In this document: positions 3,853 through 64,000 of the stretch, piece after piece
How the letters are laid out: each line of letters starts with the position of its first letter
Position numbering within the stretch: the first letter of the stretch is position 1
Virus record (IMG/VR): IMGVR_UViG_3300048502_000185
Span: 1 to 64,000 of that record
Length of the DNA stretch: 64,000 nucleotides
Reading direction: 5' to 3' (one strand)
Source: a virus
Lineage: Duplodnaviria; Caudoviricetes
Position numbers and translations under genes: made by a program
Notes under the pieces: model-generated
Told to the model about the DNA's origin: nothing
Databases searched by the model: none
Seen by the model: the letters and a program-made list of their open reading frames with translations, nothing else

Positions 3853-4308
3853 TCACGATCCCCAAAAAATATGGTATGCCCCACCTTCTATGTGAAGACC
3901 CTCAAAATAGACATGATGGGTGTCAATACCGCCGAACCAAACGGTTTGTGAACGAGTTTGGCGTTCCGTCTCTCTAATAGCGACTATCAGATCACGAGCA
4001 GTAAAATACTTTTTATTAGGTGCTTTGTGTTCAACATCTACATTGGCTCTACCACTCATTTTTAATGAGGGTTGTTTGAGCACAACGGAATCAAGTTCAG
4101 CTTTGGTAGGCTTACGCTGGTCATACTCGCCATGTTCATCTTCAAGATTCACGTAAGCATCAAACTTCACCGATTTGATTTTGGCACCAGGCGCTCCAGT
4201 AGTATTATACATATTGGGTGATATCAATACTGGCTCTTTTGTAAATTTTAGATCAAGAATACCACCGAACTTTTTATTGAAGTCATCAATATTCATATAT
4301 TTTGCCAT
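3853..4308 (-). CDS. Hypothetical phage protein
   Basis: 151-aa ORF in the co-oriented gene array. Confidence 0.65.
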   Translation of the reverse strand: MAKYMNIDDFNKKFGGILDLKFTKEPVLISPNMYNTTGAPGAKIKSVKFDAYVNLEDEHGEYDQRKPTKAELDSVVLKQPSLKMSGRANVDVEHKAPNKKYFTARDLIVAIRETERQTRSQTVWFGGIDTHHVYFEGLHIEGGAYHIFWGS

Positions 4309-5492
4309 GTTATTCCTTTTTTAACTTATCGATGTCATCCTGTCTAATTCGTAAACGCTTCATCTCTTGTTTAGTACATATATCACTGATTATAGTAAGT
4401 ATAATATACCCAACCCACCAAATAATTCCAATAACAAAAATAGCAACCATTGCCCATAAAGTGATGGTAATTAACGATTCCATTTTCCCTCAAATTGATT
4501 TTGATCGAATCTTATCTTCTAAATAATACGAAGAAGTAGTTACCGCCAACATTAGCAGCAAAATAATACAAACAAGTAATGACCTGTTAATTGAAAACAG
4601 CCCTAACATAAATACCCATATTAAGCCAATAATGGCTAAAGTTCCAACGATACTAAATGAACAAAATCTTAACGCTTTAAGAAAAGCAAATAATAACATT
4701 TAGATATTACCAATGATTACCATCAATATAAAAAATACTAATATCGCTATAACTGATACTATAATCGCCATAAAAACACTATCTCTTTCTACTTACAATT
4801 AATGCGAATATTAGTGTGCACACAACAATACCAAGAATGAATCCCATTTAGTTTTTCTTTCTTTCCAAGAATATTACTATGACAATAATTCCTATTATTG
4901 CAAATATCTTATGCAAAGTCGGAAGACCGCCCAATAACTTTGATATGAAACTTATTACCATTACAATCAAAAATAATTGTATAATCTCCCCCTGCTGGTC
5001 CGAGCCAACCTTTTACTTTGGGTATACGAAAAATATTGCCCCCACCAATAGAGATACAGCAATTTTGCCCAACCTTGGGATCAGACATTAAAATTCCGGT
5101 GATAGAAGTTTCATTAGGACGAGTTAGTTCGACAGCAATAGAGCTCATTTTTATTATTTAGTATCCTCACTTTTTGTTTTGGCTTGGCGTCTCTCGCTTC
5201 TGTCGAAAGTATTCACCAATGCATTAGTTCCATAAGACTCAAAATATGCAAGAAAACGATTTATTGGTCCAAAAACAAAATCATAAATTGCATTGAACAA
5301 TCTATTCTTAGGAGAAAGGAATGTATTAACAATTAGCCGATCTTCCTTAGATAGATTTTTGTAATTTTCTTTTGTATTATACATGAGTTTTCCTTGCATA
5401 TAATTCAATTTTTCCACAACCATTCGCAATAAAAGAAAATCAATTTGGGGAAACAATTTTGTTATTATCTCCCCAAATTGAATTTGGTCTGA

Positions 5493-5837
5493 TTAGACCC
5501 TTCGCTTGAGACCGCCGCCCTTTCCCTTCGTAATAACAAAAAGAGAATCTTCTCCCTTGCTGTTATCACGCATGTACTGGAGAGTTAGCTCCTCCAAAGC
5601 GGAGAAGTTTTCTGGCTGAACATTGATGCTATTCAGTGCCATTGAAGCCAACACTGGCATTGCGATGCTCTTGCCGGGATGTGCGTCCAGGATAGAGTCA
5701 ACTGCTGCTGACAGGGTCGCTACTTCAGTCTCATGCTGAGCAATGTAGCTCGCATATTCAGTTTCGAATACGGCAAGCGAAGCGTCGTGATCAATCTTTC
5801 CGTTCTTGTTTACAAGTTCAATAGTAAGTTCATTCAT
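5493..5837 (-). CDS. Putative winged-helix DNA-binding protein, paralog A
   Basis: C-terminal TKGKGGG wing-like motif; paralog of 46001..46357 and 54389..54748; GGAG SD. Confidence 0.65.
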   Translation of the reverse strand: MNELTIELVNKNGKIDHDASLAVFETEYASYIAQHETEVATLSAAVDSILDAHPGKSIAMPVLASMALNSINVQPENFSALEELTLQYMRDNSKGEDSLFVITKGKGGGLKRRV

Positions 5838-5931
5838 TTTAAATTCTCCATTTATTCTCTCTGTTGAGATTTTTTATTCTAAATATACAGAAGCAACATT
5901 ATTGCTGCTACCTGCGTTTTGAGATATCACA

Positions 5932-5960
5932 ATCATACATCGTGTCCGAGTCGATGTCAA
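5932..5960 (-). promoter_or_regulatory. Strong sigma70-type promoter
   Basis: TTGACA-17 nt-TATGAT with extended -10 TG, upstream of 5493..5837. Confidence 0.75.
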
Positions 5961-5999
5961 GGCCCCAGGCGAAAACAACTAAGAAAACGCCTGGGGCCT
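5960..5999. terminator. GC-rich hairpin, possible terminator of the LamG gene
   Basis: Perfect 12-bp stem AGGCCCCAGGCG/CGCCTGGGGCCT; no long U tract. Confidence 0.4.
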
Positions 6000-6045
6000 G
6001 ACACCCAGATAAGAATGACCATACATGACCATACAATTTATATGT

Positions 6046-7590: not shown

Positions 7591-7691
7591 TTAAACTACA
7601 CCTCATCTTTCTTTTGAATACTAACTATTAACACAACAATCAAATCTTTATATGAAGTTTTCTTTTTCTGTTTTCGTATGATTGTTATAGA

Positions 7692-9787: not shown

Positions 9788-10495
9788 TTAAAATAGAAGT
9801 TCAAAACCAGTACTAAACCCAGGAACCCAGCCAGAAGCATGTGGATTACCGAAAATCACAGTACCAGATGCATTATTACTACTTACAACTGATTGAAAGT
9901 TTGATGTATGAACATTCAGATGTGATTCACCAAACTCAAAGTTCCAACGGAACCCAGTTGCTTTGCCAAGCCTTAAACCACCAAGGAAAGATTCAAAAGA
10001 ATATCCTACACCAGGAACATCAGAATGACCGGGAACCTTTCCTTCTGGGAAAATACCAGCCTGTAAATCTCCAAAGATACCAATCGGAACATCAGGCAAA
10101 AGCGCCAGAGGATCAAGCTTCAAACTAAGTTTTCCACCAAATGGTGCGACATAATTATAATCGAGATATGCTCCAAGCTGGACCCAGTCAAGCTTGGGGT
10201 TTACGACCACGCCCAACGAAGCGCCCGATGGGAAACCGAGACTAAATTCTCCTCCAACGTGCCATGGATGTTCATCCACTTGAACAGTGGTCGTGGCAGC
10301 ATGAGCATTTGCGGCGACCATTGGCGTAGTTGTAGGAGCAACATACGTGTTTGTCACTGGCGCCGTTGCAGTTGCGGGGACATTGGTCGTCGGTGGATCA
10401 GCCATGAGAGACCCAACGGTCTCTTGATCGGCAAGAGCCGAACTACCAATTGTAAGAGAAGAAGAAACAGCAGCAAATATAATATATTTATTCAT
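9788..10495 (-). CDS. Putative outer-membrane beta-barrel protein
   Basis: Signal peptide, Thr/Pro-rich linker, amphipathic beta strands, C-terminal ...GFELLF (aromatic end). Confidence 0.55.
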   Translation of the reverse strand: MNKYIIFAAVSSSLTIGSSALADQETVGSLMADPPTTNVPATATAPVTNTYVAPTTTPMVAANAHAATTTVQVDEHPWHVGGEFSLGFPSGASLGVVVNPKLDWVQLGAYLDYNYVAPFGGKLSLKLDPLALLPDVPIGIFGDLQAGIFPEGKVPGHSDVPGVGYSFESFLGGLRLGKATGFRWNFEFGESHLNVHTSNFQSVVSSNNASGTVIFGNPHASGWVPGFSTGFELLF

Positions 10496-14549: not shown

Positions 14550-14897
14550 CTATTCTTGGAATGATCCAAATGGTAAATCCACAACTTGTGGATTATTTGG
14601 CTCCATGCTTACTGGCTGAAAGCAACACCCGATGGGAATATCGGAAGACGATGGTCCGCATGATGCATTAAAATTCCTTGAAGAGGAAACTGGTGCAGTC
14701 CTATCATAATTTAGTTTTGCTACTACTTTATCATAATGAACAAGTTCTGAATTTGGATTCATGGCAAAATACAAAAAATATTCCCATGCATCACTTTCAG
14801 AAAGATTTTCCAACAAAATTATATTGTCAGCACGAACTGACCATTTTTGATTTTTAACTTTGATCACGAATCTCCTTTCGAATGAATTGGAAACCAT
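14550..14897 (-). CDS. Hypothetical protein
   Basis: 115-aa co-oriented ORF. Confidence 0.5.
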   Translation of the reverse strand: MVSNSFERRFVIKVKNQKWSVRADNIILLENLSESDAWEYFLYFAMNPNSELVHYDKVVAKLNYDRTAPVSSSRNFNASCGPSSSDIPIGCCFQPVSMEPNNPQVVDLPFGSFQE

Positions 14898-15758
14898 TCT
14901 TCATTTTTGTGAACGAAAGAAACTTCCATCTCAAGTTTTGAGAAAAACTTGGCATTGAAAAGATTTTCTGAGTAATCATCTCTTTTGCCAGTCCAAAAAG
15001 TGCCATCTAATTTTCTAATTACATACCAATGCGTGTTCACGAGATAATAATCTCCGCTTGGTTCAGCGCATTGGAAAGATAGGCATTCACATCCATGCCA
15101 CTTGGCGATGTATAGAAACTAAGTGCTGCTCGCATTGCCCGAAGTTCTCGTTCGGTCAACGTAAACTTTACCTGATATGTTTGATTTGAGTCTTTTATAA
15201 TCTCTGATCTGCTGTTCATGATATTCTTTCCGGGCAAATGCCCTCTTTTATTGAGTGTCGTAAGGAATCTCTCTAATCAAACGAATGATATCATCATGCG
15301 ACTGACCATTTATAATGGCCCAAAAGAGCCTTCTTTTAGGCGACCACTGAAGTTCTAATTCTAAAATTGTAGCCATTTACTTCCTTACTTTTTATTTTGT
15401 GCGATTAAATAAATTATTATTCCAATAATAATTATTGCGGATACGATGTTAATATACATTTGTTTTCAGAACAATGGTGCTCTACAATTAGAACAAAATG
15501 CGTCTCCGTCTTTGTCAATTCTAACAGCAGACGATGGATGCTTACAAGATGTATCCATGAACGGAGGAATCTCTAAAACCCTGCCAAGAGACGGGCCCTT
15601 GAGGTGATTTAGATCCCTAACAGATTGTCGCGTGAAACCAGAACGATGATTCTTCATAATAAATCCACTTTTCTTTCTTTCTCAACTTTTAGTTGAGCCA
15701 TTAATAATTAAGAAACACACACCCCCATGTTTTGAACAGACTGCCCGATGGGAACGGC

Positions 15759-18062: not shown

Positions 18063-18313
18063 CTATGAACACGACCCGATGGGAACCTGTTTTGTTATTT
18101 AGGGATAGGGATGCCCAAAATGGTCATTCGGATCAATTGGGATAGGGCTGCTGAACTCACGTCTATTAGCGTGGTCGGCTTCATTAACACATGCGCTATA
18201 ACATTGACAGGCTTCAATATTACATGTGGGCGCCACAACTGGCGTATTCGGAACTGAACCAGCACAGCCAGTTAATAATAATAGATACAAAAGTTTTTTC
18301 ATCATAATCTCCT

Positions 18314-23713: not shown

Positions 23714-24575
23714 TTAAGCAAATCCTTTTTCAATTGCCCAAAAACCTATTTTGCTACCATTAGAATCTAATATATCATGATCTTCTTCCTCAATGGATGA
23801 AGATTCCTCTTCCATTAAAGAAGAAGCCGAAGTAATTAGAATTTGTGCAATAGCACCATAAGATGAAACTGATTCATCACCAACGTTTATTTTAAGAATG
23901 AATCTCATAAATCCTATCCACATGATTCCATGCACGTTTCATTATAACAACTTGGAACGGTCCAAGTGGAATCCACGCCTGACGCCACACAAAAAAGCAG
24001 AATCTATCCAGCGAACTGGAATAGATTCTGCTCATTCGATTAAACATCCGCATCCATTAGTTCAGACGAAGACCTCTTGCCACGCAGGAAGTATAGATCT
24101 CCCCGAACAACAATCGTATATTCCTGACCTGAGCGCAAGAACTTCTTGCTTGGTGCAATTTCAATAGAGATTAGGCGCACAACATCGCTACGACGAGCAA
24201 TTGACTGCTCAAGGGCCAGTTTCTTTTCATCTACTTCAGTTGACGCAAGATCGTAATTACCAATGAGTTCTTTTAGATTCGACATGATACACTTCCTTTA
24301 TTTTTCAAATTAGCACAACATTGTGCGTGCCACGTCAGAGCATGGCTTCATCTATGAACCTTGTCAAGACCCGATGGGAACCTAAGTCAGGGTAATCATT
24401 AAATGATAAGGCCAAATTGAAACTGTTAATCGTTTCAAAAAGATTGAATTATTATTAGCATCATGAATTCTAAATCTTCTTGATCCAAAATAATAATACT
24501 TAATATTCTTATGTGGTCCTACTTTTAGTTCTCCTCCTCCCAACCATAACCTTAATTCTAAATGCATTTTATCCT

Positions 24576-27161: not shown

Positions 27162-27605
27162 CCTAAATTAGTAATAGTGACCGATGGGAAGGCTACCAAT
27201 TACCGCGCAAAATATAAAGACTTCTGCCCTTATACAATCCTGACAAAACGGCTATGTGATCAACATAATCATTATCGTGAGTTAAATATACTTTGGTCCC
27301 ATGACGGAGTAAGGCGAAACCAACTTCCGCAAGACATTGCTTTTCAGACTCGCCAGTTCCCCTGATACATACAAGAAAATCTGTAATTTGACTGCCAGTG
27401 AAAGCCCGTGTGTTTTGCTCCAAAACCAATTCATCCGCACTGGCAGTGATAGTACTGCTCATAATAGCAAGGACACAACCAATTAGAATACTTTTCATTT
27501 ACCACCTACTTAATACATTTGGATAAATGTAGCTAAAAACTATTACTGATAAGGCCATCAAATCCAATAACCCAAATAAAATGGTATAAAAAATTAAAAC
27601 ACTTT

Positions 27606-30984: not shown

Positions 30985-31590
30985 CTATCCACCTGAGAAC
31001 ACTGATTTAGTCTGCTTTGCCTTGACGCCCCAACTAATCGAAGAATTGCTAACGCCCATCTTCTTCATGAACGGGCTCTTACCAGCCTTCAAAATTCGGG
31101 CAAGTGCATCTTGCCTTAAAACGACCTCTGCCATATACTCGCCCTTGATGATAATCTTGGTGGAAAGCAACACGCCAAAGTAATCAGAGGCAGACGAACC
31201 GTCCGCAAGTTGCCGATCCAAGAAGCGCATACCGTCCTGGGGCATATCAAAAGGCTTCTCAATGACAAGATTGCCATCGGCAGAATAAATTGATGCCACA
31301 TAATTCTTTGGAACCTTGTTGGTTTCTTTTGCTTTGTCAGCAAGAATCTTTGCTTCTGCTTTCTTAACTTCATTTTGAATCTGGTAGGAGAGAACAGCGG
31401 CTTTGATGTCTGAAAGAGCGGGGGTGGGCAAAAGTTCGCGAGCATCAAACCGATTGACTATTGAACCAACGACACCGAACATCTCATCATTCATGAGGAA
31501 TGATCTGTGATTGTTAATAAACTCCGAGGCAGAATTTGCTGCCTTGGTTCCAGCCTTGAAAAGAAACTTTTTTACTGACATATTCGACAT
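30985..31590 (-). CDS. Hypothetical phage protein
   Basis: 201-aa ORF with GGAG SD. Confidence 0.65.
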   Translation of the reverse strand: MSNMSVKKFLFKAGTKAANSASEFINNHRSFLMNDEMFGVVGSIVNRFDARELLPTPALSDIKAAVLSYQIQNEVKKAEAKILADKAKETNKVPKNYVASIYSADGNLVIEKPFDMPQDGMRFLDRQLADGSSASDYFGVLLSTKIIIKGEYMAEVVLRQDALARILKAGKSPFMKKMGVSNSSISWGVKAKQTKSVFSGG

Positions 31591-31804
31591 TTGTGGTCTC
31601 CTAAATTGTAAGAGGTACTGCTTGACTACTGATTGGAAGTTCGAACCCGATGGGAACCTTATCGTTTATTTTTCTTGCTAATCTTTATATTTTTTAGATT
31701 GGCTCTGGTTGACTTCAAAGCGGTTTCCAAAAATTGATCAGTCTCTTTTTTTGAGAATTCGCACATAGTAAAAAAATCAAAATTATCTAATTCAGATGTC
31801 TTTT

Positions 31805-32699: not shown

Positions 32700-33713
32700 C
32701 TACTTCTTAGTATTTATAGCCCGATGGGAAGTCTTGACATTCTTTTTCATTAGTTCATTAAACTCTTTTTCATTTTTACAACGTAAACCATGTATCCAAT
32801 ATTGCTTATGGCCATTTGACATGTAAATGGCGGGCCCATTTGCTCGATGGAACTTACCATTTAGATACCAATATTCATCCCCATTAGCATACTTAATAGC
32901 CGGGCCATCTTTGCGACTATATTTGCCATGTAGATACCAAAGCTTTGTGCCATCAGGATATTCTTGGGCTGGGCCATCTACACGGTGAAGTTTGCCTTTT
33001 AACCACCATTCTTTATAGCCATTAGGCGATTCTTTAGCGGGGCCATCTACCCTATGAAGCTTACCATATAGGTGCCAAAGCCTTGTGCCATCAGAATAGT
33101 TGATAGCGGGAGCATTTTCTCGATGGAGATTTTTGTTTAGATACCAAAACTTGGCGTTAGCATATTCTTGCAATTCGCCACCATTAGGAAGCTTCTTTAT
33201 TTTAACAGTATTTTTCTTCGCTGGCTTAAGACCTTCACCATTTAGGAACCACCACTTTTCACCATTAGCAAACTCAACAGCAGGTCCATTTTCTCGATGT
33301 AATTTATCATTTAAATACCATTCTTTATCACCATTAACTCTTTCAATAGCAGGACCATCTTCTCGATGAATCTTACCATTTAGATAATAAATGGTATCAC
33401 CATGGATATATTTAAAAATCTCTTTGCCATCAGGATATTTATATAATATTCCATTAGGCAATTTACTTATTTTAACTTTTTTCATTTTCTTTTCACCAAC
33501 CTTAAACATCCAAGATTTAAAATCTAGACATTCGCCATATAGCCACCATTCTTTATCGCCTTCAGCAAAGTCTATGGCAGGACCATCTTCTCTATGGAAT
33601 TCACCATTTAGGTAATGAATGGTATCACCATTGGTATATTTAAAAATCTCTATGCCATCAGGATATTTATATAATTTTCCATAAGGGAAATTACTTATTT
33701 TAACTTTTTTCAT
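32700..33713 (-). CDS. HREDGPA-repeat family, copy 8 (fusion of three units)
   Basis: About 9 HRxDGPA repeats; internal MKKVKIS restart; divergent tail CKNEKEFNELMKK. Confidence 0.85.
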   Translation of the reverse strand: MKKVKISNFPYGKLYKYPDGIEIFKYTNGDTIHYLNGEFHREDGPAIDFAEGDKEWWLYGECLDFKSWMFKVGEKKMKKVKISKLPNGILYKYPDGKEIFKYIHGDTIYYLNGKIHREDGPAIERVNGDKEWYLNDKLHRENGPAVEFANGEKWWFLNGEGLKPAKKNTVKIKKLPNGGELQEYANAKFWYLNKNLHRENAPAINYSDGTRLWHLYGKLHRVDGPAKESPNGYKEWWLKGKLHRVDGPAQEYPDGTKLWYLHGKYSRKDGPAIKYANGDEYWYLNGKFHRANGPAIYMSNGHKQYWIHGLRCKNEKEFNELMKKNVKTSHRAINTKK

Positions 33714-37618: not shown

Positions 37619-38218
37619 TTACCTGGATTGCACTTGGCAAAGAATCTCGGGATGACCAGGCGGGTGAGTCATGTAGCTCGGATCAAAGTGCTTGCTCATA
37701 ATTGGAGATATCTCAGCAACATTATCTTGGAGATATTTTATGAATTGTTTCTCAAGCAACTTTGCATCAATTTGACTTGGAGAATAATAAAAGACCTTGC
37801 AATATATCTCCATGTCAGCGATGACACAATTGGGCTGAAGTCCCAAACGAACTTGTTCGGGGCTTCTATCGCATGTAATATCAAATGACATTACGGAACG
37901 ATAACCTGATGGGCCAGCATCATTATAGCCGACTGGCACGCTATGAGGCTTGATTAAGAAACCTTTGCCAACAATTACTGGGATGTCAATGTCATCATAG
38001 ATATGAAGTGATATCATTCCAGTTGTCCAAACTATAGGTGGAGTAGTTTGGACATGTTCGATTGGGGCGATGACAACATTTGTTGGCGTTGTGTGTGCGA
38101 TGCTTTTGCTTGGAGTCACGCTCGCACAGTTGAGCGCGAGCGCAGACAAAGCGATCCCAAAGAGATTAATTGTTTTGTTCATTGTTCCTTTCAAAAAGCT
38201 TGACAAGTTCCGGGACAT
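37619..38218 (-). CDS. Putative lipoprotein/secreted protein
   Basis: MNKTINLFGIALSALALNC lipobox-like (true start probably the internal Met). Confidence 0.55.
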   Translation of the reverse strand: MSRNLSSFLKGTMNKTINLFGIALSALALNCASVTPSKSIAHTTPTNVVIAPIEHVQTTPPIVWTTGMISLHIYDDIDIPVIVGKGFLIKPHSVPVGYNDAGPSGYRSVMSFDITCDRSPEQVRLGLQPNCVIADMEIYCKVFYYSPSQIDAKLLEKQFIKYLQDNVAEISPIMSKHFDPSYMTHPPGHPEILCQVQSR

Positions 38219-39372
38219 CCAGTCTGGTTATTTTCTACGTTTAGTGGACAACCAGCATCACCATGATTACATACATCAGATAGAATCCCAAAGCCTTGAA
38301 TAGTTTGTGCACAATCATTATCTACTAAACAACTTGCTCCAACTGGAAGTGGAGTGATACACGTTGAAGTTCCGGTAGTAGCCCCTCCGGCTATATTATA
38401 TATAGCAATACCAAAACAGATCAAACCAGGAGCACATTCAGCAATTTGGCTGGTGGTACTAAGCGGCGTATTACAAATACCTCCCAATCCAGGACGTGGT
38501 TGACATGTAGCGGTGATAAAAGAACCTGGTGCTGTCGCCAGGCATTGTAGCCCACTTCCACAAGATTCAAGTAGTCCAGCGCTATATGGCCTACTCCCAT
38601 TACAATCGAACGGAACATCACATGTATTGCATATCGATCCTACCAGTCCATCAGTTTGATACTGCTGACATGTAAATGGACCGTTGCTTTCGCCAGGGCT
38701 AATAGATATTACTAAACCAGATTCAGTTAAACACTGTTGGCCACTTCCACAAACAGTAATAAGGTTTGCTGGAACCTGCGAACAATTAGTAGAACTATCT
38801 GGACAACAAAAGGAACCTAATGTAGTATTAGTTGTTGATGCTTCCGTTCCAGCATCAGGAATAGTTTGTGCAAAAATAACTGTGGAAGTTTCTGGTGAAT
38901 TCAAATCTGCCATTCCAGAATCTGCAACGGGCGTTGACGCTTCTGGCAAAACTGCCCCAGCATCAGGCGTAGGATCAACCGTACCAGCATCAGGATCAGC
39001 GGGAGGATCGGCGTTAGGAGCCAAGGCAACAGACACTCCGGCGTCCTCAAGATTGACAGTAACTACGACGGTCACCACGACAACAGTTGGTAGTCCGCCA
39101 TCAGTAGATTCTGACATTGCGGTTTGCGTAGCGGTAGACGCTGCCACAGCCGTGTTCGCAACAAATGCGGATGAAGTTGTGGATGTGTTCGTGCCAGTAT
39201 CAGTTCCAGTATTAGATCCAGTAGAATCTACTTGGACGATTGCCGAAGAAGTTGATCCAGAGTCGTTAGGACTATTAGGATCGTTAGGTTCATTAGCCGA
39301 ACCAGGGAAGAGCGTACAAGAGGAAGACGCAATCATAATTGATAACAGTGTTGCGGAATATTGAATTTTCAT
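38191..39372 (-). CDS. IMIASSxC-LFPG family lipoprotein, duplicate A (S/T/DAG stalk plus Cys-rich head)
   Basis: First about 450 nt nearly identical to 39984..40973; different Cys-rich C-terminus. Confidence 0.85.
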   Translation of the reverse strand: MKIQYSATLLSIMIASSSCTLFPGSANEPNDPNSPNDSGSTSSAIVQVDSTGSNTGTDTGTNTSTTSSAFVANTAVAASTATQTAMSESTDGGLPTVVVVTVVVTVNLEDAGVSVALAPNADPPADPDAGTVDPTPDAGAVLPEASTPVADSGMADLNSPETSTVIFAQTIPDAGTEASTTNTTLGSFCCPDSSTNCSQVPANLITVCGSGQQCLTESGLVISISPGESNGPFTCQQYQTDGLVGSICNTCDVPFDCNGSRPYSAGLLESCGSGLQCLATAPGSFITATCQPRPGLGGICNTPLSTTSQIAECAPGLICFGIAIYNIAGGATTGTSTCITPLPVGASCLVDNDCAQTIQGFGILSDVCNHGDAGCPLNVENNQTGCPGTCQAF

Positions 39373-39588: not shown

Positions 39589-39987
39589 TTTCTTCTTTAC
39601 AGTAATACGAGCTTTCCATTTTTTTGCCCAACTCACAACGTCCTTCAACTCGTCGAAGCCTCAATAAAGAGAATTGATGATTTAGCACTGTCGGAAAAGC
39701 AGCATTCAACAGAATTAAGAGTAGCAGAGAGCCATCGCCTAAATGCTATTATTGAAAATACAAAAGAACAAACGCTATCACAAGCCGCTATACTAGCCAC
39801 TCAACTCCAAAGTAATACTGATTCTATTAGACTCCAAATCAATAATCTATCTGAACGACTTTCAATTGTTGAGAAAAATAACAATGAAAATGCTGGATCT
39901 CGTAATAAATCGCAACTAAACATAGGTTATATAATTGCAGCAATAACAATCTTCGTTGCTATTATTGGCTATTTTCTTCATCATTAA
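39589..39987 (+). pseudogene. Start-less coiled-coil ORF with a C-terminal TM helix
   Basis: Open frame ...PTHNVLQLVEASIKRIDDL...IGYIIAAITIFVAIIGYFLHH*; no in-frame start, a T7 run lies upstream. Confidence 0.45.
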
Positions 39988-40973
39988 AACTGACAAACAG
40001 GTGTTCCGCCATCCAAAGACGAGCATGACAATGGACCAGCGCTTGATGCACAATCCTGATATACCTGACAGGGTTCTCCTTTGGCTCTTGGAACAATGCA
40101 AGTGGAACTTGGGCTACCTAATAGTATAGGAAACTCCTTCGTATCACAGTCTGTATTGCTTGTGCAAGGCATACCAAAACAAGTTAGTCCGACATCGCAA
40201 AATGGGTTGCCGGCACCGCTGCAAACTCCTCCTAATTCTACCGGTGCTTCACAAACACTCGGACCGCCTACGAGAACGCAGGTTAGTCCAGCTTGACAAA
40301 CACCACTTGATTGTTTTGATACAGGAAAATTACAATCAAGTGGTTGTGTTCCAATACCACAACAATACCCACCTAATCCAACTGGTGGTAATATAGGAAT
40401 AATTGTGGATGCTTCTGAAACGCTTGGAGGATCAGCATCTGGCGAGGCATCTGGCGATCCTGCATCGGGAATGGTATCAGCGAAAATGATTGTAGAAGTT
40501 TCTGACGAGTTAGAACCAGAATCTGCAACAGGCGTAGATGCTTCTGGCAAAACCGCTCCAGTATCAGGCGTAGGATCAGCCATACCAGCATCAGGATCGG
40601 CAGGAGGATCGGCGTTAGGAGCCAAGGCAACAGACACTCCAGCGTCCTCAAGATTGACAGTAACGACGACGGTCACCACGACAACAGTGGGTAGTCCGCC
40701 ATCAGTAGATTCTGACATTGCGGTTTGCGTAGCGGTAGACGTTGCCACAGACGTGTTCGCAACAAATGCGGAAGTAGCTGTAGATGTGTTCGTGCCAGTA
40801 TCAGTTCCAGTATTAGATCCAGTAGAATCTACTTGGACGATTGCCGAAGAAGTTGATCCAGAGTCGTTAGGACTATTAGGATCGTTAGGTTCATTAGCCG
40901 AACCAGGGAAGAGCGTACAAGAGGAAGACGCAATCATAATTGATAACAGTGTTGCGGAATATTGAATTTTCAT
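39984..40973 (-). CDS. IMIASSxC-LFPG family lipoprotein, duplicate B
   Basis: MKIQYSATLLSIMIASSSCTLFPG; Cys-rich head shares the PVELGGVC/FCDVGLTC pattern with 6046..7590. Confidence 0.85.
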   Translation of the reverse strand: MKIQYSATLLSIMIASSSCTLFPGSANEPNDPNSPNDSGSTSSAIVQVDSTGSNTGTDTGTNTSTATSAFVANTSVATSTATQTAMSESTDGGLPTVVVVTVVVTVNLEDAGVSVALAPNADPPADPDAGMADPTPDTGAVLPEASTPVADSGSNSSETSTIIFADTIPDAGSPDASPDADPPSVSEASTIIPILPPVGLGGYCCGIGTQPLDCNFPVSKQSSGVCQAGLTCVLVGGPSVCEAPVELGGVCSGAGNPFCDVGLTCFGMPCTSNTDCDTKEFPILLGSPSSTCIVPRAKGEPCQVYQDCASSAGPLSCSSLDGGTPVCQF

Positions 40974-41835: not shown

Positions 41836-41918
41836 TATAATATCCTTGAACTTTCCTTGAAACGTTGCTAGGAAGAATCTTCCCGCATCATTACTATTGG
41901 CTTGAAGCCCGATGGGAA

Positions 41919-42926
41919 TCAGGCAGCCTTTTCTTCTTTACCAAAATACTTGCACACTTCTTCTGCCGTGGTATATGCAACTTGAAACCGTTCAAGATAA
42001 CGAAAGCCATCCCGAATCAATGCGTCGCCCTTGCCAAGCAAGTTTTCGGCGCCAGTGGCATCCAAGACAACTTTGGAATCAATGTGACTCGCAACCCGAC
42101 AAGCAATGCGAGCAGGAAAGTTTGCCTTTATCGTGCCATTGATAATGTTCGTGCTTGGTCGCTGAGTAGTGAGAATAATATGAATTCGAGCAGCACGACA
42201 CTTCTGAGCAAGTCTACAGATTAGAGTCATAAACTCGTTATCCTTGTCCTGCATAATTAGATCGGCAAACTCATCAATGATGACAACGATGTGTTTCATC
42301 TCAGAAACTGGCTTGCCAACACGAATCAAATCATAGCGTGATTCCATCGCTTGCAATAGATTCTTGAGCAATTGAATTGTATTAGCATACGTATAGCAAA
42401 CTGGAATGTTGCAGGTTGCTTCATACTTCGCGAATTCAATCTGCTTGGGATCTGCCAAGTATAACTCCACATCGTTATACTGAAACAAGTTGGCGATGAT
42501 AGTATGCAACAAGGTGCTCTTGCCCGAACCAGTTGTGCCGGCAATAATCATATGGGGATTCTTGGTAAGATCCATCCACATCTTTTGACCATCAACTGTT
42601 TGACCGAGCAAACAATTAATTGCGCCATTGGGAATATCTTTGTTAGACATGTAATTAAAGAAACTAAGTTCGCTTGTTCTTGGGCCAGCAAATTCCAATC
42701 TAACTAAGCCTTCATTGTGCATGACCTTGACGGAAGGCTTGCAGGGGCTTTTGAGAGCCAAAGAGATCTCGTCGAGATACTTCTTGATCGTATTGACCTT
42801 GGTGCTGGAATGCAGCTTCAGATCATAGAAAAAATAGTTATCGACCTGTTCAAAATTAACGCACTCTGCTTTGATGCCGAATGAGTTCAGGATAGAATCG
42901 AAGTTGGTTTGGTTATCAGTGTTCAT
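41919..42926 (-). CDS. ftsK: FtsK/SpoIIIE-type DNA translocase motor (alpha-beta only; no TM or gamma domain)
   Basis: PHMIIAGTTGSGKS Walker A, VVIIDEFADL Walker B, TQRPS, KANFPARIA, GAENLLGKGD. Confidence 0.9.
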   Translation of the reverse strand: MNTDNQTNFDSILNSFGIKAECVNFEQVDNYFFYDLKLHSSTKVNTIKKYLDEISLALKSPCKPSVKVMHNEGLVRLEFAGPRTSELSFFNYMSNKDIPNGAINCLLGQTVDGQKMWMDLTKNPHMIIAGTTGSGKSTLLHTIIANLFQYNDVELYLADPKQIEFAKYEATCNIPVCYTYANTIQLLKNLLQAMESRYDLIRVGKPVSEMKHIVVIIDEFADLIMQDKDNEFMTLICRLAQKCRAARIHIILTTQRPSTNIINGTIKANFPARIACRVASHIDSKVVLDATGAENLLGKGDALIRDGFRYLERFQVAYTTAEEVCKYFGKEEKAA

Positions 42927-42964
42927 AATAATATGATCCTATGAGGGCCCGATGGGAAACCCTA

Positions 42965-44044: not shown

Positions 44045-44114
44045 TCGACTTTCTTATTGAAACGGTTTTAGTTCGTACACAAGAGATTTATGTCTGTGCC
44101 GATGGGAACTTTAT

Positions 44115-44942
44115 TTACAAATTTGCTAATCGTTTGGTTGTTATATTGATTGCCTCTTGACTTTCGTCTATTAGAATATAACCACGATTGTGTTTTATTG
44201 CGGCAGCACCAGTTGTTCCGCTACCACAAAAGAAGTCTAAAATAGTGTCATTTTCATTAGAATGAATCTTCACAAGTCTTTCTAATATTTGAATTGGTTT
44301 CTGTGTAGAATAACCAGTTCGCTCTTTACCATTTGTAGGAACTATTGTTTGCCACCAAACTGATGTTGGAGTCTTACCTCGTGCGGCTTTTTCTTTTCCA
44401 ACTAAGCCTGGCGCCATATAAGGGAGTCTATCCATGGCATCATAATTAAATATATACTTTTTTGGGTCCATAACATACCACAATATGTTATCATGTTTAG
44501 CGGGCCACTTCTTTTTAGAACGAGCCCCAAAATCATAAGACCAAATAATCTCGTTCATAAAATGATCTCTACCGAGAAGGGCGTCTAAAGCCACCTTAAT
44601 ATAGTGAACCTCTCTATAATCTAAATGAACAAACAAACTTCCATTATCAGTCAAACAATGAATACTTGCTTCAATGCGAGACATTAGAAAGTTTTGGTAA
44701 TCATCAAATGAATCATTGTAGCTTGACGAACTAATTTTTGTAGTGTTATATTGTTTACCACCAAAGCCAATTCGATCGCCCTCTTCACCAGAATTAACTG
44801 CAACAGTTTTGATTCGATCCCTTTTCATTTGTTTACCTGAATTAAAAGGTGGATCAATATAGATCATTGTAGATATTTTATCAGGCAACTTTGCCAATTC
44901 TTTTAGATTATCACCAAGCATAATTTGTTTTGTTAATGTCAT
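44115..44942 (-). CDS. DNA N4-cytosine/N6-adenine methyltransferase, beta class
   Basis: IDPPFN (motif IV) N-terminal, YSTQKP, LDFFCGSGTTG (motif I) C-terminal. Confidence 0.92.
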   Translation of the reverse strand: MTLTKQIMLGDNLKELAKLPDKISTMIYIDPPFNSGKQMKRDRIKTVAVNSGEEGDRIGFGGKQYNTTKISSSSYNDSFDDYQNFLMSRIEASIHCLTDNGSLFVHLDYREVHYIKVALDALLGRDHFMNEIIWSYDFGARSKKKWPAKHDNILWYVMDPKKYIFNYDAMDRLPYMAPGLVGKEKAARGKTPTSVWWQTIVPTNGKERTGYSTQKPIQILERLVKIHSNENDTILDFFCGSGTTGAAAIKHNRGYILIDESQEAINITTKRLANL

Positions 44943-45009
44943 TAAGATTTTCTCCTATATTGTATTAATATATACTAAATCAATAATACTTATCTTATTG
45001 ATCTACAAA

Positions 45010-45630
45010 CTACATACATATTAATGCCTGATCAAATGTCAAAAAATAATTCTTTATGAATTCATTCTGAATATAAGCAAGTTTTATATTATCTTGACGA
45101 ATTTTATCCATCCATATTTTCAGATTAATAAACTTTTGATCTTCCAAAGAAGCCTTATCACATTCGGACAAAATATTATCAGGATCAATTTTATAGTTTT
45201 GATAACCTTCCAAAGATTTTAAAGAAAATGATGCAGATATAAACTGACTTGGACAGTGCTGTCCGTTTCTATCAATAAGATGACGCACAATTATATTGCC
45301 TGGAATTACATATATATCTCCAGATGACATATTTACTACTACAATTGGTACATATTCCCAAGCACGAACCTGATTAATAGAAAATGAAGTATTTTCTCCA
45401 CCAATTTTCTTTACTTCACAACAGTTTCCATTTGGCGTTTTTAGATCTCCTGGCTCTTTATGAGCCGATTTACTAAATCCATATTTAACAATTAGATCTT
45501 TTTCTATTTGCTCGCCATCTCTTTTTATGGAGAGACTGGTTTCTTTTTCACTTGAATCTGATTTGCCACAAGATATATCCGTAAACATTTGAATCAATCG
45601 ACTTTCTTTATGAAACATTTTAGGTTGCAC
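45010..45630 (-). CDS. Putative PD-(D/E)xK restriction endonuclease
   Basis: E...GDLKTPNGNCCEVK candidate catalytic motif; adjacent and co-oriented with the MTase; AT-rich. Confidence 0.55.
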   Translation of the reverse strand: MQPKMFHKESRLIQMFTDISCGKSDSSEKETSLSIKRDGEQIEKDLIVKYGFSKSAHKEPGDLKTPNGNCCEVKKIGGENTSFSINQVRAWEYVPIVVVNMSSGDIYVIPGNIIVRHLIDRNGQHCPSQFISASFSLKSLEGYQNYKIDPDNILSECDKASLEDQKFINLKIWMDKIRQDNIKLAYIQNEFIKNYFLTFDQALICM

Positions 45631-45669
45631 CTAAGGTTTCACCTTAGCAGCCGATGGGAACTTTATCCC

Positions 45670-48169: not shown

Positions 48170-48348
48170 CAAAGACCCGATGGGAAAATTATTTTTTTAT
48201 CACGAAAACACGACTTCAAAAGAAGTCAATGCAATCCAACAAAACGAACAAAGACAAACTGCACATTCAAATGTAATCATGATATTTTTCAACACTTGTT
48301 AGGAGTGCTGCTCAACTATTGATTGAGGTTCGTACACGATGGGAATAT

Positions 48349-50398: not shown

Positions 50399-50450
50399 TT
50401 TAATTCTCCGTTATACTTATGTACTTGTCATGCCACCGATGGGAATCGGA

Positions 50451-52224: not shown

Positions 52225-52772
52225 TTGAATTCTCTTTTCCTAAAACACTAATCAAAACAAACACTTGTGTGCCGATGGGAGCTTTCACTCGGGTAGATAA
52301 TAATCGAACCATGGTCCCAATAAAACCGTTTGGACTTGTGCAATCTTACTTAGACATGAGCGGCTTGATGTTTCGGGGCTTTGACAAAATCTCATTGCTC
52401 CCTCTTCGGAGAAGCCTTTTAGCAAAACAATTCGCGTTCCATTATAAAGGAACCTGACAATCTTATAGGTGTCCATGACGGAACTCGTATGTTAGTGTGT
52501 AAATGTATTATTCTCTATTGATAATCGCCTGTTCACGCGTATGCCAAGAAAAATAAAACTCTTGCAGCCGCTCATGAAACTCATTGAAAAGAATCTGATC
52601 TGATTCTGAAAGTGAATCATCTCTTGATGCAGCATCGAAAGCTCGTTCAACTGCACTAATCAATGCGCTTGCAGAAGTTTCTTTTAGAAACGCTTTGCAA
52701 ATATTAACCATTGCACCTTGGGTCGAGTCTATATCAATTGAAACTTTCATTGTTTTTTTTCTTTCATAGTAG

Positions 52773-52855
52773 TACCGAAGAAGGGATTTGAACCCTTACA
52801 CCCGTGAGGGTAACCGATCTTGAGCCGGTCGTGTCTGCCATTCCACCACTTCGGC
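52773..52855 (-). tRNA. trnL: tRNA-Leu (anticodon CAA), long variable arm, CCA not encoded
   Basis: GCCGAAG/CTTCGGT acceptor stem, GGTGGAATGGCAGACAC D region, ACCGG-CTCAAGA-TCGGT anticodon arm, AAGGG-TTCAAAT-CCCTT T arm. Confidence 0.92.
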
Positions 52856-54748: not shown

Positions 54749-55176
54749 GTTATTATCCTTGAACTTTCTTGTTTTATATTGTTTGAGAGGTTTTAGTTAT
54801 TGGGGAAGTTTCTTGCTTCCCCGTGATATTCGATTCTACTTGATACCCGATGGGAACTTACTTTAGACGTTAGACTCGTTCGGCGTGAAAATAATTGAAA
54901 CAGTGTCATCGAAACGAGACAGCGACCAACTACCTACAACGACGCCATTTTCGTCCTTCATTCTATTACCGATGAAAAGCTCGCTGTCAGCCAAAGAAAA
55001 TCTTCCGGTATACTGGGCAAAGTTTTTAATCTCGCGCTTAAGGTCTCCACTGTTTTGCATAACTTCGTCTGCAAAGTCGATTGTAATATTAAGTCGCATC
55101 ATGTTATTATGTCCTTGAACTTTCTTGTTTGAGATGATTGCTACGTTATTAGTTTCTATCTGTTGCCCGATGGGAC

Positions 55177-59115: not shown

Positions 59116-59131
59116 GTTAGCCTCTTGCTAT

Positions 59132-59497: not shown

Positions 59498-60249
59498 TGT
59501 AATATCCTCTTACTATTATGAAAATAATATTATTAGTCGATGGGAACATCGTTCAGGTCAAGATTATAAAGCAATTTGCCCACTCGTTCGGCACGAGTAG
59601 GATCATGTCTGACAAGCGCCGCCAACACATCATAAGCATGATTCAAAGTCCTACGCTGAACGGATGTCAGCTTGTCCTTACCAATCAAAAAAAGATCGTC
59701 AAGAACACGCTGAATATCTTGCTCAATGAATCGATCTAATGGAAGACGACGATTGTTATTGCTCATTGTTTTTCTCCTGATTATATAAACGTTTATTGTT
59801 CCGATGGGAGGAGTGATTCCAGCAATATAAGTGCTTTATTCAATATCATGATTTGAGAATCAAATAAAGGTAGCGTATTATCCTCTAAAATAGATACAAG
59901 ATCTCTAATCGAAGATTCGATCTCAGTTGATTTAGGTGTTATGATAATCGGTCTCATTATATTAGATCCTTTATTGCCAGATGGGTCTTATATATATTGT
60001 GTAATAATCTTTATTAAAGCAAACCCTTATATGGACCCGATGGGAAACATCTCGGACATTCGCGAAAAGATTCCTGATGACCTTCGTCGGAATGTTCGTT
60101 TTCTTTGCCTGCAATCTCAGCACAAGGTCCGCATAGATGACCAGTGCCACATGATGCCTCTTGCGTGGAACGCTTGCCGCAAACGCGGCAGATAACATTG
60201 GGCTGATTGCGCTTGCTAAACTTTATTTTGTTCATAACTATATAATCCT

Positions 60250-60501: not shown

Positions 60502-60546
60502 GATGCACTTCCTTCATTAGGAATTAGAGTTTAATGCTCGATGGGT

Positions 60547-60783: not shown

Positions 60784-60829
60784 GACGCACATCCTTCATT
60801 AGTAATTAATTTAGATTATCCGATGGGAA

Positions 60830-61405: not shown

Positions 61406-61759
61406 TATCAAACCTCTTGATAACAATCGGCTTTTGATATTCGATGGGAAGCATGTGAGAGATTGTAGGCAAACTACCTATTCCTACCGCATCTATTAGA
61501 GTGCGGTTAGGTTCCCTTACATCAAAACAATAGTAAGTATTATGCCCGTTATGAGCATATTGAAAGACGGCAAGATATCTCCCATTGTGGGATGTGTAGT
61601 CCAAAGTGTTAAGAATTTTTTCCCACATGTTTCCTTTCGAGAAAGTTATTGAAAGATATCCTACATGTGTCCTTACATTCCCACCAAGGAACGGTAAATG
61701 TAAGCAAACCATCACGCAGGCTTTAGTAATTCAAACTACATACCCGATGGGAACATCGG

Positions 61760-62065: not shown

Positions 62066-62510
62066 CGCTTGGGCTTCCTGATTAACTTCCCGAACTTATA
62101 ACTATACTTGACTTTTTCAGTATCAACTAAAACTGCCAATTCCTTTTGAACGGTTTCATAGGCTTCGAAAACAGCCCTCCAGCGCTTTACGGTATCGCTG
62201 TCTACATCGGCTTCCCAACCCCTCCCTTTGGACACAAGAATAAATCCAACATCATCCCCAGTAAACGGCGCGTCAATATAAATTTTCATAATTATCTCCT
62301 TGGTTTCTAACACGATGGGAACATGCCAAGGTATACCGTCCTTGGCTTCCCCGTATTGGGGCTGCATCAAAGCAGGAAAGATGCGTGCCGATGGGAAGGT
62401 GCTTGTTGGCGCGAAAGAAGATGGCAGCAATCTTGCGTCATTGCAAAAATCAAACCAACTTCCCCAATAAAATCAAATGCTTACATTGCAGGCAAATGTA
62501 ATCAAAGGAT

Positions 62511-62536
62511 AAAAAATGGGGGACATATGTCCCCCA
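62511..62536 (-). terminator. Intrinsic terminator / perfect palindrome
   Basis: TGGGGGACATATGTCCCCCA (20-bp palindrome, 62517-62536) followed by TTTTTT on the minus strand. Confidence 0.7.
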
Positions 62537-62560
62537 CGTTAGGGCACGCAGTATTCAAAA

Positions 62561-63031
62561 TCATCGCACCACTTCGGGACAAGGGATAATCGCCCTAATC
62601 AAGTCGCACATGGTTACTTTGGCGGAGAAGGAGTTGTCGTCGTAAAATTCAGCGACGACAAAGTGGGTGATGTAGTCGGCGGCATAGTGGACACCAGCGG
62701 CAAAGTGGGCGGCGTGGTCGGCGTAGTCGATGCTGTTGTCGATGCTGACCTGCTCAGTCGAAGGCTCAGCACGACACCATGCTTCTGCGGTTTCGATCGC
62801 GATAAGAGCCTCTGGTCTTGTGGCGAAAGGGATAACCGTCCTAGCGCATGCGCATGCGGCGAGAACGATATCTCGCCGACTAACGCCGGTACGTCCAGCC
62901 AACCAGAAAAGCCAAGCGGGCCTAGTGCATGCAGCGTACGCTTCGGAAAGCGTAGAATAATCCGAGGCAAACTCGATTGCCTCGTCGCAGGCTTTCAGGG
63001 ATTTTAGATACTTGATATGCGTAGCAGTCAT
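62561..63031 (-). CDS. Imm5-like protein, paralog 1, with an NNY-codon C-terminal tract
   Basis: DIVLAACACARTV.PF...ALIAIETAEAWC resembles Imm5-like helical repeat proteins. Confidence 0.7.
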   Translation of the reverse strand: MTATHIKYLKSLKACDEAIEFASDYSTLSEAYAACTRPAWLFWLAGRTGVSRRDIVLAACACARTVIPFATRPEALIAIETAEAWCRAEPSTEQVSIDNSIDYADHAAHFAAGVHYAADYITHFVVAEFYDDNSFSAKVTMCDLIRAIIPCPEVVR

Positions 63032-63085
63032 TGTAATGTTCTTCCTTTATATAGTTTCTAATTGAAGACCTGATGGGTTAGCTAA

Positions 63086-63616
63086 TCACTCAACGCACAC
63101 CACTTCGGGACAAGGGATAATCGCCCTAATCAAGTCGCACATGTTCACACGGGCGTCGGCGTTGGCTGCGTCGGCGGCGTCGGCGGCGTCGACGGCGTCG
63201 GCGGCATAGGTAGCGGCGGCGGCGCGGGCGGCGTAGGCGGCGCGGGCGGCGTAGACGGCGGCAGCGCGGGCGTAGACGGCGGCAGAGGCGGCGGCAGAGG
63301 CGGCGTCGACGGCGCCGTAGGCGCGGACGCGCACTTGTTCAATCGTCGCCTCGCCACGACACCATGCTTCTGCCGTTTCGATCGCGATGAGGGCTTCTGG
63401 TCCTGTGGCGAACGGTAAAGCAGTTCTAGCACATGCGCATGCGGCGAGAACGATGTCCTGGCGACTAACGCCGGTATGTCCCGCCAACCAGAAAAGCCAA
63501 TCTGGCCTAGTGCACGCAGCGTACGCGTCTGAAAGAGACGAATAATCCGAGGCAAACTCGATTGCAGGGTCGCAGGCGCCCAGGTACTGAAGGTAGGTGA
63601 TATGCGTAGCAGTCAT
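63086..63616 (-). CDS. Imm5-like protein, paralog 2, with an Ala-rich NNY-codon tract
   Basis: Same N-terminal domain; GCC-rich tract 63149..63331. Confidence 0.7.
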   Translation of the reverse strand: MTATHITYLQYLGACDPAIEFASDYSSLSDAYAACTRPDWLFWLAGHTGVSRQDIVLAACACARTALPFATGPEALIAIETAEAWCRGEATIEQVRVRAYGAVDAASAAASAAVYARAAAVYAARAAYAARAAAATYAADAVDAADAADAANADARVNMCDLIRAIIPCPEVVCVE

Positions 63617-64000
63617 TGTTATTCTCTTTCTTTATATAGTTTCTAATTGAAGACCTGATGGGTTAGCTAATCACGACTACAAAAGCCGTGCCATTCATTC
63701 GCAATGCTCTGGTGAACGCTTCGGCATGATAAGACGTATAGAAAACTCGAACGGACTTTCCGAAAGAAACATAATAGTGGGTCATTGTCATTCTCTTTCT
63801 GATGTTAAATCTCGATGGGCTACACCACAAATATTTTTTATGGCTTCGTCTTGACGATCACGAAACGCAGCATATCCTACCTTATCAATAATCTGATATC
63901 GAATCTCGTTATATACTCTTAAGCTAGGCTGAAGTAGCGCATCATATATTCTTTTCACTTCAGGAGTCATTGTATGTTCTTTCTTTATATCTTAGTTTCT

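Follow-up and report, generated by a model that had tools for sequence, protein, structure and literature searches.

A strand-locked CCCATC motif with a genome-scale density gradient in uncultured huge phages, read tentatively as a minimal promoter element

The organisation of transcription in phages of 400-500 kb is essentially unknown, and no member of the lineage considered here has been cultured. The stretch of DNA that was analysed, referred to as the window, comprises the first 64 kb (64,000 nucleotides) of the 90,987-bp viral record IMGVR_UViG_3300048502_000185 (Duplodnaviria; Caudoviricetes), which is about 20% complete according to CheckV. Nearly all the genes in the window lie on the minus strand and most of them are very small, and along them the hexamer CCCATC is repeated dozens of times, almost always on the coding strand and close to the ends of genes. 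A preliminary description, made by a model from the letters of the window, considered this motif a candidate stoperator-like or gene-boundary control system. The question raised by this locus is therefore what a hexamer so strictly oriented does, and what reads it. In this work we counted the motif against background models, followed it into related genomes and compared its distribution with that expected from several known systems. The motif proved to be one part of a family-wide architecture that extends far beyond gene boundaries, and it may represent a minimal promoter element.

The CCCATC array and its position relative to genes

The window contains 78 copies of CCCATC on its minus (coding) strand and 4 on the plus strand, exactly the numbers that had been estimated by eye, and every position cited in the preliminary description was recovered in the exact search. 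Markov models predict about 7 sense copies and 16-17 antisense copies; the earlier estimate of about six per strand thus stands for the sense strand but not for the antisense strand, where the word is clearly underrepresented. For the whole record the counts are 130 sense and 5 antisense copies against expectations of about 12.5 and 23-25, that is, an enrichment of about 10-fold in one orientation and a depletion of about 5-fold in the other (P about 1e-6). The enrichment that had been proposed for this strand holds against a third-order Markov background, under which CCCATC is the top over-represented 6-mer (z = 20; z = 17-20 in three genomes). The consensus in this record is TTCCCATCGGG, with a logo that reads T T C C C A T C G G G, and no conserved bases were found farther upstream when the window copies were aligned. 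The sequence TTCCCATCGG, allowing at most one mismatch, has 44 matches on the minus strand and a single one on the plus strand, when 2.8 are expected for both strands together. The array had been delimited to positions 3915-63819; it is present there, but these limits are incomplete, given that it runs on past the window up to an abrupt start at approximately 77.6 kb of the ~91-kb record.

The location of the motif relative to the open reading frames (ORFs) of the window is highly regular. ORF stops lie mostly 0-3 nt upstream of the motif, and most full copies are located 0-15 nt past a stop codon. On the other side, the next ORF-opening ATG peaks at +30 from the first C (24 nt past the hexamer) and at +42 to +49, so that full copies are typically found 24 or 36-43 nt ahead of the next ATG, upstream of the Shine-Dalgarno (SD) sequence; a purine run that resembles an SD sequence separates the motif from the ATG. 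An ORF start at +27 to +49 was observed for 53 copies, compared with 16 in random controls. Altogether, 60 of the 78 copies have a stop and/or a start close by, and for the fuller match TCCCATCRR the junctional fraction is 37 of 43. For this window, then, the anatomy proposed earlier, with the motif past a stop and ahead of a leader and SD sequence, is correct. Recoding of stop codons was considered as the cause of the many short ORFs and discarded, as the longest ORF was unchanged under any reassignment.

Lineage variants, density gradient and selection on the motif

The window encodes an FtsK/SpoIIIE-like ATPase whose relatives, at 60-75% identity, number in the thousands and are found on contigs of 200-480 kb that also encode ribosomal protein S21, ClpP, a topoisomerase and HU. 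Judging by these contigs, the source lineage is one of uncultured huge phages; a megablast search against known phages gave no match, and no known phage is close. In the relatives, the strand counts of CCCATC are 246/4 in G003 (433 kb), 360/7 in G012 (452 kb) and 111/25 in G004 (448 kb), and those of TCCCATCR are 0 against 55 in G011 and 0 against 59 in G017. The closest relative, L011 (75% identity), carries seven copies of TCCCATCG, all of them on the gene strand and 11-21 nt past stop codons. The extended consensus is specific for each genome: in G004 it reads TCCCATC-N3-TAACGG followed by (c)TAAT-ATG, and in G003 and G012 it is reduced to (A/T)CCCATC. The TAA conserved within TAACGG can serve as a stop codon. 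An ATG at exactly +30 from the first C follows 32 of 99 copies in G004, and the +30 peak is also present in this record and in G003.

In G005, which belongs to a sister lineage, the motif is replaced by the variant CTCCCATTCAC. An unbiased scan for strand-asymmetric k-mers in this genome identified it as gCTCCCATTCACgG (8-mers 63 vs 3), with a sharp onset at 419,980 and with an SD sequence and an ATG 30-45 nt downstream. The lineage variants have TCCCAT in common, and from these comparisons the motif system is family-wide, with lineage-specific variants. Since the same polar motif appears with such variants in independent assemblies obtained from other samples, an assembly artefact, which had been named as a possible refutation, is excluded.

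Two orthologous loci show what the motif stands next to. A tRNA-Leu gene with a common upstream block is preceded by CCCATC in G003 and by CCCATT in G005, and the motif ends 1 nt before the mature tRNA. The gene of the FtsK-like protein is preceded by CCCATC-N24/25-ATG in this record and in L011, G003, L027, L028, L038, L039 and L051; in the sister lineage the same gene has no CCCATC and carries a conserved bipartite promoter, TTG-N19-TAnnTTG / GATTATA. This sister promoter, which at the L015-L045 loci can be written as CCCTTGC-N17-19-(G)ATTATAnTG and lies about 20-50 nt upstream of the gene, resembles the -33/-7 geometry of Bacteroidota sigma-A promoters; the genes of the motif sector nevertheless have strong SD sequences, and the tRNA promoters are TATAAT-like in appearance. 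Its word CCTTGC was also considered as an equivalent polar repeat and rejected (49 forward vs 73 reverse). From the promoter exchange at the FtsK-like gene, the tRNA-Leu locus and the fixed distance to start codons, it follows that the motif lies directly upstream of functional RNA units, at a place where a relative has a promoter.

Beyond gene boundaries, every genome shows an abrupt onset of the motif followed by a decay of its density along the direction of transcription, over 75-285 kb. In this record, the successive 8-kb intervals downstream from ~78 kb contain 16, 34, 30, 20, 8, 8, 5, 2, 4 and 1 copies, and in G012 the density reaches 36 copies per 4 kb (9 per kb) and decays to zero over ~285 kb. 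GC content falls alongside, from 46% to 35-38% in this record, from 61% to 30% in G012 and from 52% to 30% in G003. The motif-rich sectors (G012 411-436 kb; G003 250-280 kb; G005 420-480 kb; this record 48-80 kb) have a GC content far above that of the rest of the genome, in G012 up to 61% vs 32%, with a smooth decay from the onset; possible causes are adaptation of one temporal class to host codon usage, recent gene acquisition or biased gene conversion. The dense zone has a strong period-3 signal and is apparently coding. In the motif-free zone are encoded the DNA polymerase, the head protease, the baseplate wedge, sheath-like and giant structural proteins, and in the late module of G012 sense copies are absent where 9-12 were expected (P about 1e-4). 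The motif therefore separates an accessory sector, which is GC-rich and hypervariable and holds the copies, from a module for replication and the virion that is free of them. The coupling of the two gradients, of motif density and of GC content, is a genome architecture not reported before, and full-text literature searches found neither this motif nor such a gradient described, in agreement with the earlier remark that the sequence was not recognised as any described site. The terminal repeats of G012 were considered as physical ends and turned out to be merely a 254-nt closure: positions 1-254 and 451702-451956 each belong to a circular-closure overlap formed by two copies of a 127-nt unit, each with a tRNA-Arg. 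As the records close into circles, they give no position for a physical end.

Within the sectors the motif is maintained in coding sequence at the level of synonymous codons. In the G003 sector the dipeptide Pro-Ile uses the codons CCC-ATC in 26 of its 41 occurrences, when codon usage predicts 3.5, and outside the sector in 2 of 233; along the G012 gradient the fractions are 18/63, 11/94 and 0/137. For Asp-Gly, which on the same strand would create the reverse complement as GAT-GGG, the counts are 0/342 in G003 and 0/420 in G012. The bias thus goes beyond codon usage, a correction that the preliminary description had asked for, and it does not respect the reading frame: a verified DEAD/HA2 helicase gene contains 12 copies distributed in the three frames. 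Nor does the motif follow genes that change strand. In the G012 gradient, opposite-strand ORFs carry it on the common DNA strand at 0.42 per kb, vs 0.43 in forward genes, and in none of them does the motif read in the sense of the gene; several have been verified as genes (HNH, GIY-YIG, LAGLIDADG, glucosaminidase). The antisense word is purged also outside the sector, with 1 copy vs 22-38 expected in G003, 0 vs 28-30 in G012 (P about 1e-12) and 16 vs 45-52 in G004, and the sub-words GATGG and ATGGG are not depleted. Regarding spacing, no pairs of copies are closer than ~50 nt, although 13-27 such pairs are expected by chance, and where the copies reach saturation (9 per kb) nearest neighbours most often lie 80-120 nt apart; past this exclusion, periodicity, helical or other, is weak. 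Selection on the motif dictates synonymous codons and erases its reverse complement across almost half a megabase. These properties of the relatives, namely intragenic copies at synonymous sites, strand lock and a genome-scale gradient, contradict the idea of a purely gene-by-gene boundary device. The proposal that a phage protein binds the motif fares better in one respect, given that a phage-encoded reader is the most economical inference when related lineages carry different variants of the motif, and is not supported as to the gene-by-gene action ascribed to it. The genes concerned, described there as early, may be so; what the sequences show is a lack of the motif in the module for replication and the virion.

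A minimal promoter and its rival readings

We infer a role in initiation: CCCATC may be a minimal, orientation-dependent promoter element, located near the transcription start and used by a host RNA polymerase that a phage factor would redirect. This is the reading we prefer, tentatively, as it falls a little short of being probable. The hexamer would be the core of a lineage-specific transcription signal, extended as TTCCCATCGGG or as TCCCATC-N3-TAACGG, or replaced by CTCCCATTCAC, and it would sit at a distance of ~0-12 nt from the transcription start. In this window, the small genes of the accessory sector each carry one copy, just past the previous stop and 24 or 36-43 nt from their own ATG, and given this distance the transcript would begin just upstream of the SD sequence. 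Because the element is so short, wrong-orientation copies would fire antisense transcription and would be purged genome-wide, few copies or none would occur in the module for replication and the virion, and copies would lie about one polymerase footprint apart (an RNA polymerase-promoter complex covers ~75 bp). A promoter explains the junction geometry, the exchange at the FtsK-like gene, the antisense purge and the absence from the late module, and likewise the footprint-like spacing, the unstructured region downstream and the lineage variants.

Several structural and sequence searches bear on the kind of promoter that could be involved. Folding at or near the motif was weaker than in displaced controls and equal to that of shuffled sequences, so that no stem-loop was detected, and only about half of the minimum-energy folds pair the bases of the motif; downstream of it the sequence has less structure than the controls, as a 5' leader would. 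An N4-type hairpin promoter, an RNase III site and an intrinsic terminator were discarded on this account, as folding against controls gave no conserved stem-loop, and the CGAT...ATCG complementarity, the CCC-ATC-GGG mini-palindrome and the GC hairpins upstream of the L011 copies turned out not to be general. An integron attC-type boundary was also rejected, because hardly any reverse-complement words exist and the surroundings form no secondary structure. The words TATA, TAAT and ATAG accumulate at +21 to +28 from the motif, and in GC-rich relatives the rise in AT content at the position of a -10 box downstream of the motif is weak. CCCATC is not a sigma-70 -35 box, since with a -10 box 17 nt farther on transcription would begin at ~+35, within the SD sequence (+31 to +37) or past the modal ATG at +30. 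No -35-like word was enriched upstream of the motif.

With regard to the polymerase, a phage multisubunit enzyme was found neither with PF00562 nor by searching DFDGD, D[FY]DGD and NADFD in any frame of five genomes, searches that very divergent enzymes could escape, and the giant ORFs look structural. PF00940 gave no match to a single-subunit RNA polymerase in five records, a search that was blank in control genomes too. A phiKZ/AR9-type promoter was rejected on the basis of the PF00562 search and of the DFDGD search in the five genomes, and a T7-like promoter on the basis of the PF00940 search, with the same blank in controls, and of a consensus of just 6-16 nt vs ~20 nt. Each complete relative encodes one sigma-70-family protein of ~208 aa (213,694-214,314 in G003, with orthologues in G004 and G005), adjoining the small subunit of ribonucleotide reductase, in which the segment that reads the -10 box is non-canonical (WAHKYIDT where RpoS has YATWWIRQ). 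The specificity factor would be this divergent protein or a factor yet to be recognised. For a -10-only or extended -10 promoter, we found no -35 word and a divergent sigma factor in all complete relatives, and a covariation of sigma and motif not above background. The -10 element of RpoH (sigma-32) is CCCCATnT, and its resemblance to CCCATC is a lead at most, as there is no CTTGAA-like -35 upstream and the phage sigma factor is not specifically RpoH-like.

The features assembled above are shared in part with the phage-specific promoters of T4 (late promoters, TATAAATA, with gp55), phiKZ/AR9 (non-virion RNA polymerase) and the T7 type, which also have a short consensus near the start of the transcription unit with no -35 box, a single orientation along the genome, a distribution by temporal class (absence from one module) and lineage variants. 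The differences are the unrelated sequence, the fact that no phage RNA polymerase was detected here, and a density of 9 per kb with intragenic synonymous copies and a gradient of motif and GC content over 75-285 kb; the present system is moreover known from sequence alone. Phage-specific promoter classes are thus already known, and it is the coupled motif and GC gradient, the selection on synonymous sites and the ban on the antisense word that are highly unusual. Some observations weigh against a promoter. A bare hexamer lacking a -35 partner is unusually small for a sigma factor that has region 4, and the late module is significantly depleted of sense copies in G012 only, not in G003 or G004. 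The phage sigma factor is 76-77% identical between CCCATC genomes and the CCCATT genome, with 3 of 15 residues of region 2.3-2.4 changed; since these differences do not exceed the average divergence, they do not single it out as the reader, for which it is a candidate. Most tRNA genes are preceded, a few nucleotides upstream, by another conserved element, ...CAATAA-N-GATATAAT..., which points to a second promoter class, conventional in appearance. Finally, gene expression alone needs neither intragenic synonymous copies at up to 9 per kb nor a strand lock that persists in opposite-strand genes; to account for these one-strand, graded copies, the promoter reading requires an added assumption, selection for dense co-directional initiation, which may be the reason for the gradient.

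These last properties are those that a polar track on DNA would account for. A directional machine would read the hexamer regardless of genes, on DNA that is double-stranded or unwound; it would be either a translocase for genome entry, packaging or segregation or a nuclease of the RecBCD/AddAB type, as occurs with Chi, and the density of the motif would peak where the process starts or ends. The monotonic genome-scale gradient with a sharp onset, the strand lock even in verified opposite-strand genes, the synonymous-codon copies in three reading frames, the even spacing and the conservation of an FtsK/SpoIIIE-like ATPase in all these phages agree with this idea, and so does the strong purge of the non-permissive orientation, which is also avoided in the case of KOPS. 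KOPS/SRS and Chi share with the motif a short word that is G-rich on the complementary strand (GATGGG), an extreme polarity independent of genes and reading frames and a density that rises to one point. The array described here is 10-100x denser, and a polar track leaves unexplained its exact spacing to start codons, the extended junction consensus of 10-16 nt, the exchange with a conventional promoter at the FtsK-like gene and the motif that abuts an orthologous tRNA. In addition, the late module of G012 is devoid of sense copies, although a permissive signal should be neutral there; the 335-aa FtsK-like protein has the alpha and motor domains only, with no gamma (KOPS-reading) domain detected by Pfam; and no end can be placed on these circular closures. 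Chi, which is recognised by the RecBCD/AddAB of the host and over-represented in the host genome, is not known to be purged in its inactive orientation. All in all we consider a polar track unlikely; if right, it would amount to a new category and to the first description of a system of this type in a virus. Less likely again is a combination of both ideas, in which the packed co-oriented copies would be minimal promoters or motor-loading sites at the first-entering end of a ~450-kb genome. RNA polymerase or a phage translocase would then pull in the remaining DNA, as in the internalisation of T7 on a hundredfold larger scale, the motif and GC gradients would record the order of entry and expression, and with the reverse orientation banned, motors would be kept from opposing entry.

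Other explanations place the signal in the RNA, in a roadblock or in no function at all. A phage protein that binds or cuts CCCAUC in long co-directional transcripts could set 5' ends upstream of ribosome binding sites (RBS) and tRNAs, or govern when the messages of one temporal class decay, as T4 RegB does on early mRNAs; the motif is indeed always sense to the dominant direction of transcription, in unstructured surroundings and just ahead of functional RNA units (24 nt to the ATG, 1 nt to the orthologous tRNA). We regard it as rather improbable, since cutting at up to 9 sites per kb within coding sequence would destroy the messages, and neither the replacement of the promoter at the FtsK-like gene nor the purge of the antisense word, which in a sense mRNA would be a harmless GAUGGG, is explained. 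Slightly more doubtful still is the stoperator-like roadblock, in which a phage repressor bound to an asymmetric site would stop the elongating RNA polymerase and silence the accessory sector gene by gene. The stoperators of L5/Bxb1, to which the phage immunity repressor binds to produce a polar block of elongation, are likewise asymmetric, present in many copies, co-oriented with transcription and located in short intergenic gaps near or often touching stops, and to this extent the analogy drawn in the preliminary description is sound. It does not predict the purge of the inactive orientation, which is the strongest signal here, or the motif at the FtsK-like gene in the place of the promoter of the sister lineage; intragenic copies at 5-9 per kb and a gradient are not expected either, and the orientation of the motif does not follow local transcription, opposite-strand genes keeping it on the common strand. 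Neither an integrase nor a repressor turned up in those parts that were examined, which were not searched systematically for them. As for a functionless by-product of composition, codon usage, duplication or restriction avoidance, some word asymmetry is expected when all genes lie on one strand, the sector holds a multicopy gene family, and sites in a single orientation make a genome refractory to Type III enzymes, as is the case of phage T7. Still, this explanation is effectively refuted by the Markov z-scores in three genomes and the Pro-Ile codons given above, and we consider it extremely improbable. Duplication does not explain the copies because their flanks are not conserved, the motif is kept across independent assemblies that differ in the gene content of the sector, and restriction avoidance produces depletion, not a 10-20-fold enrichment or a fixed spacing to starts. 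Avoidance of a BccI-like enzyme (CCATC) in particular was rejected, given that the 5-mers are not depleted.

Two further analogues that had been suggested, the start-associated sequences (SAS) of cluster K mycobacteriophages and the T4-type PeSL cassettes, do not fit. SAS are similar in being asymmetric and placed at a near-fixed distance upstream of many starts, but they contain the RBS and lie 3-8 nt from the start, whereas CCCATC ends 24 or 36-43 nt before the ATG, is followed by a separate SD sequence and is found also within genes and before a tRNA. PeSL resemble the array as a regulatory module repeated between small hypervariable genes of an early region, with pairs of copies that can bracket cassettes, here a 17-nt repeat around a methyltransferase gene pair; they require a stem-loop, and folding gave none, nor is there a -35/-10 pair at a spacing compatible with the starts.

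If the motif is a promoter, it would define a new specificity class of redirected host polymerase and predict temporal classes and gene starts in metagenomic huge phages. Should the phage sigma factor be its reader, exchanging the sigma factors would exchange the preference between CCCATC and CCCATTCAC.

Gene content and accessory features

The features located in the window are listed in Table 1. A perfect 17-nt direct repeat, ATAAAGTTCCCATCGGC, spanning 44099-45666 with its two copies, flanks an N6/N4 DNA methyltransferase gene and its neighbour, an arrangement that fits the gain of a cassette by recombination between motif copies.

Table 1. Location of the CCCATC array, of exact matches to its core and of related features in the window
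Feature	Position	Strand	Context
CCCATC array, 78 copies, consensus TTCCCATCGGG	3915..63819	-	middle and tail of the gradient that starts at ~77.6 kb of the record
exact TTCCCATCGG	10225..10234	-	within a 235-aa ORF (9788-10495)
exact TTCCCATCGG	14629..14638	-	
exact TTCCCATCGG	15745..15754	-	6 nt past stop codon
exact TTCCCATCGG	18076..18085	-	15 nt past stop, 27 nt to next start
exact TTCCCATCGG	24371..24380	-	3 nt past stop
exact TTCCCATCGG	27181..27190	-	4 nt past stop, 27 nt to next start
exact TTCCCATCGG	31647..31656	-	4 nt past stop
exact TTCCCATCGG	32721..32730	-	final codons of a 337-aa ORF, 49 nt to next start
exact TTCCCATCGG	41909..41918	-	2 nt past stop of FtsK/SpoIIIE-like gene
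FtsK/SpoIIIE-like ATPase gene	41919..42926	-	orthologous anchor for the upstream footprint
exact TTCCCATCGG	42949..42958	-	24 nt to FtsK/SpoIIIE-like ATG; position kept in orthologous loci of relatives
exact TTCCCATCGG	44099..44108	-	in the 17-nt direct repeat ATAAAGTTCCCATCGGC, downstream flank of the methyltransferase gene pair
exact TTCCCATCGG	45651..45660	-	in the second copy of the 17-nt repeat, 22 nt to start codon
exact TTCCCATCGG	48177..48186	-	
exact TTCCCATCGG	50436..50445	-	7 nt past stop, 39 nt to next start
exact TTCCCATCGG	54847..54856	-	8 nt past stop
exact TTCCCATCGG	60037..60046	-	final codons of a small ORF
exact TTCCCATCGG	60820..60829	-	2 nt past stop, 41 nt to next start
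exact TTCCCATCGG	61744..61753	-	8 nt past stop
exact TTCCCATCGG	62388..62397	-	
antisense CCCATC, four in window	31055..31060; other starts 36627, 57806, 57950	+	16-17 expected

The larger proteins encoded in the window are of accessory type and include, besides the FtsK/SpoIIIE-like ATPase and the N6/N4 DNA methyltransferase, GH16, lectin-fold and FGE-sulfatase-like proteins. Two paralogues of 330-380 aa (38191-39336 and 39984-40973, minus strand) share the peptides ANEPNDPN and ATQTAMSE and have high coding scores; they belong to no Pfam family and gave no relatives in the viral collection. A multicopy family of small proteins (50-140 aa) extends over positions 12212-50934 of the window and 78305-85242 of the record (minus strand). 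About 30 of its members match the same one or few loci, at 89.4 kb in G003 and 91.5-95 kb in G004 (joined coordinates), and some match DUF6745. Homing endonucleases of the GIY-YIG, HNH and LAGLIDADG families are scattered in these genomes, often on the opposite strand, for instance at 85965-86762 (minus strand) of the record and in several opposite-strand ORFs of G012 and G003. A peptide chain release factor with PCRF and RF-1 domains is encoded at 407194-408282 of G012, just upstream of the onset of the gradient.

The lone tRNA-Leu (caa) of the record, at 52772-52855 of the window (minus strand), has no motif within 120 nt upstream. In G003, G012, G004 and G005 there are 39-57 tRNA genes per phage, including suppressor-like ones (anticodons cta and tta), with clusters for example at 401-408 kb in G003 and 41-52 kb in G005.

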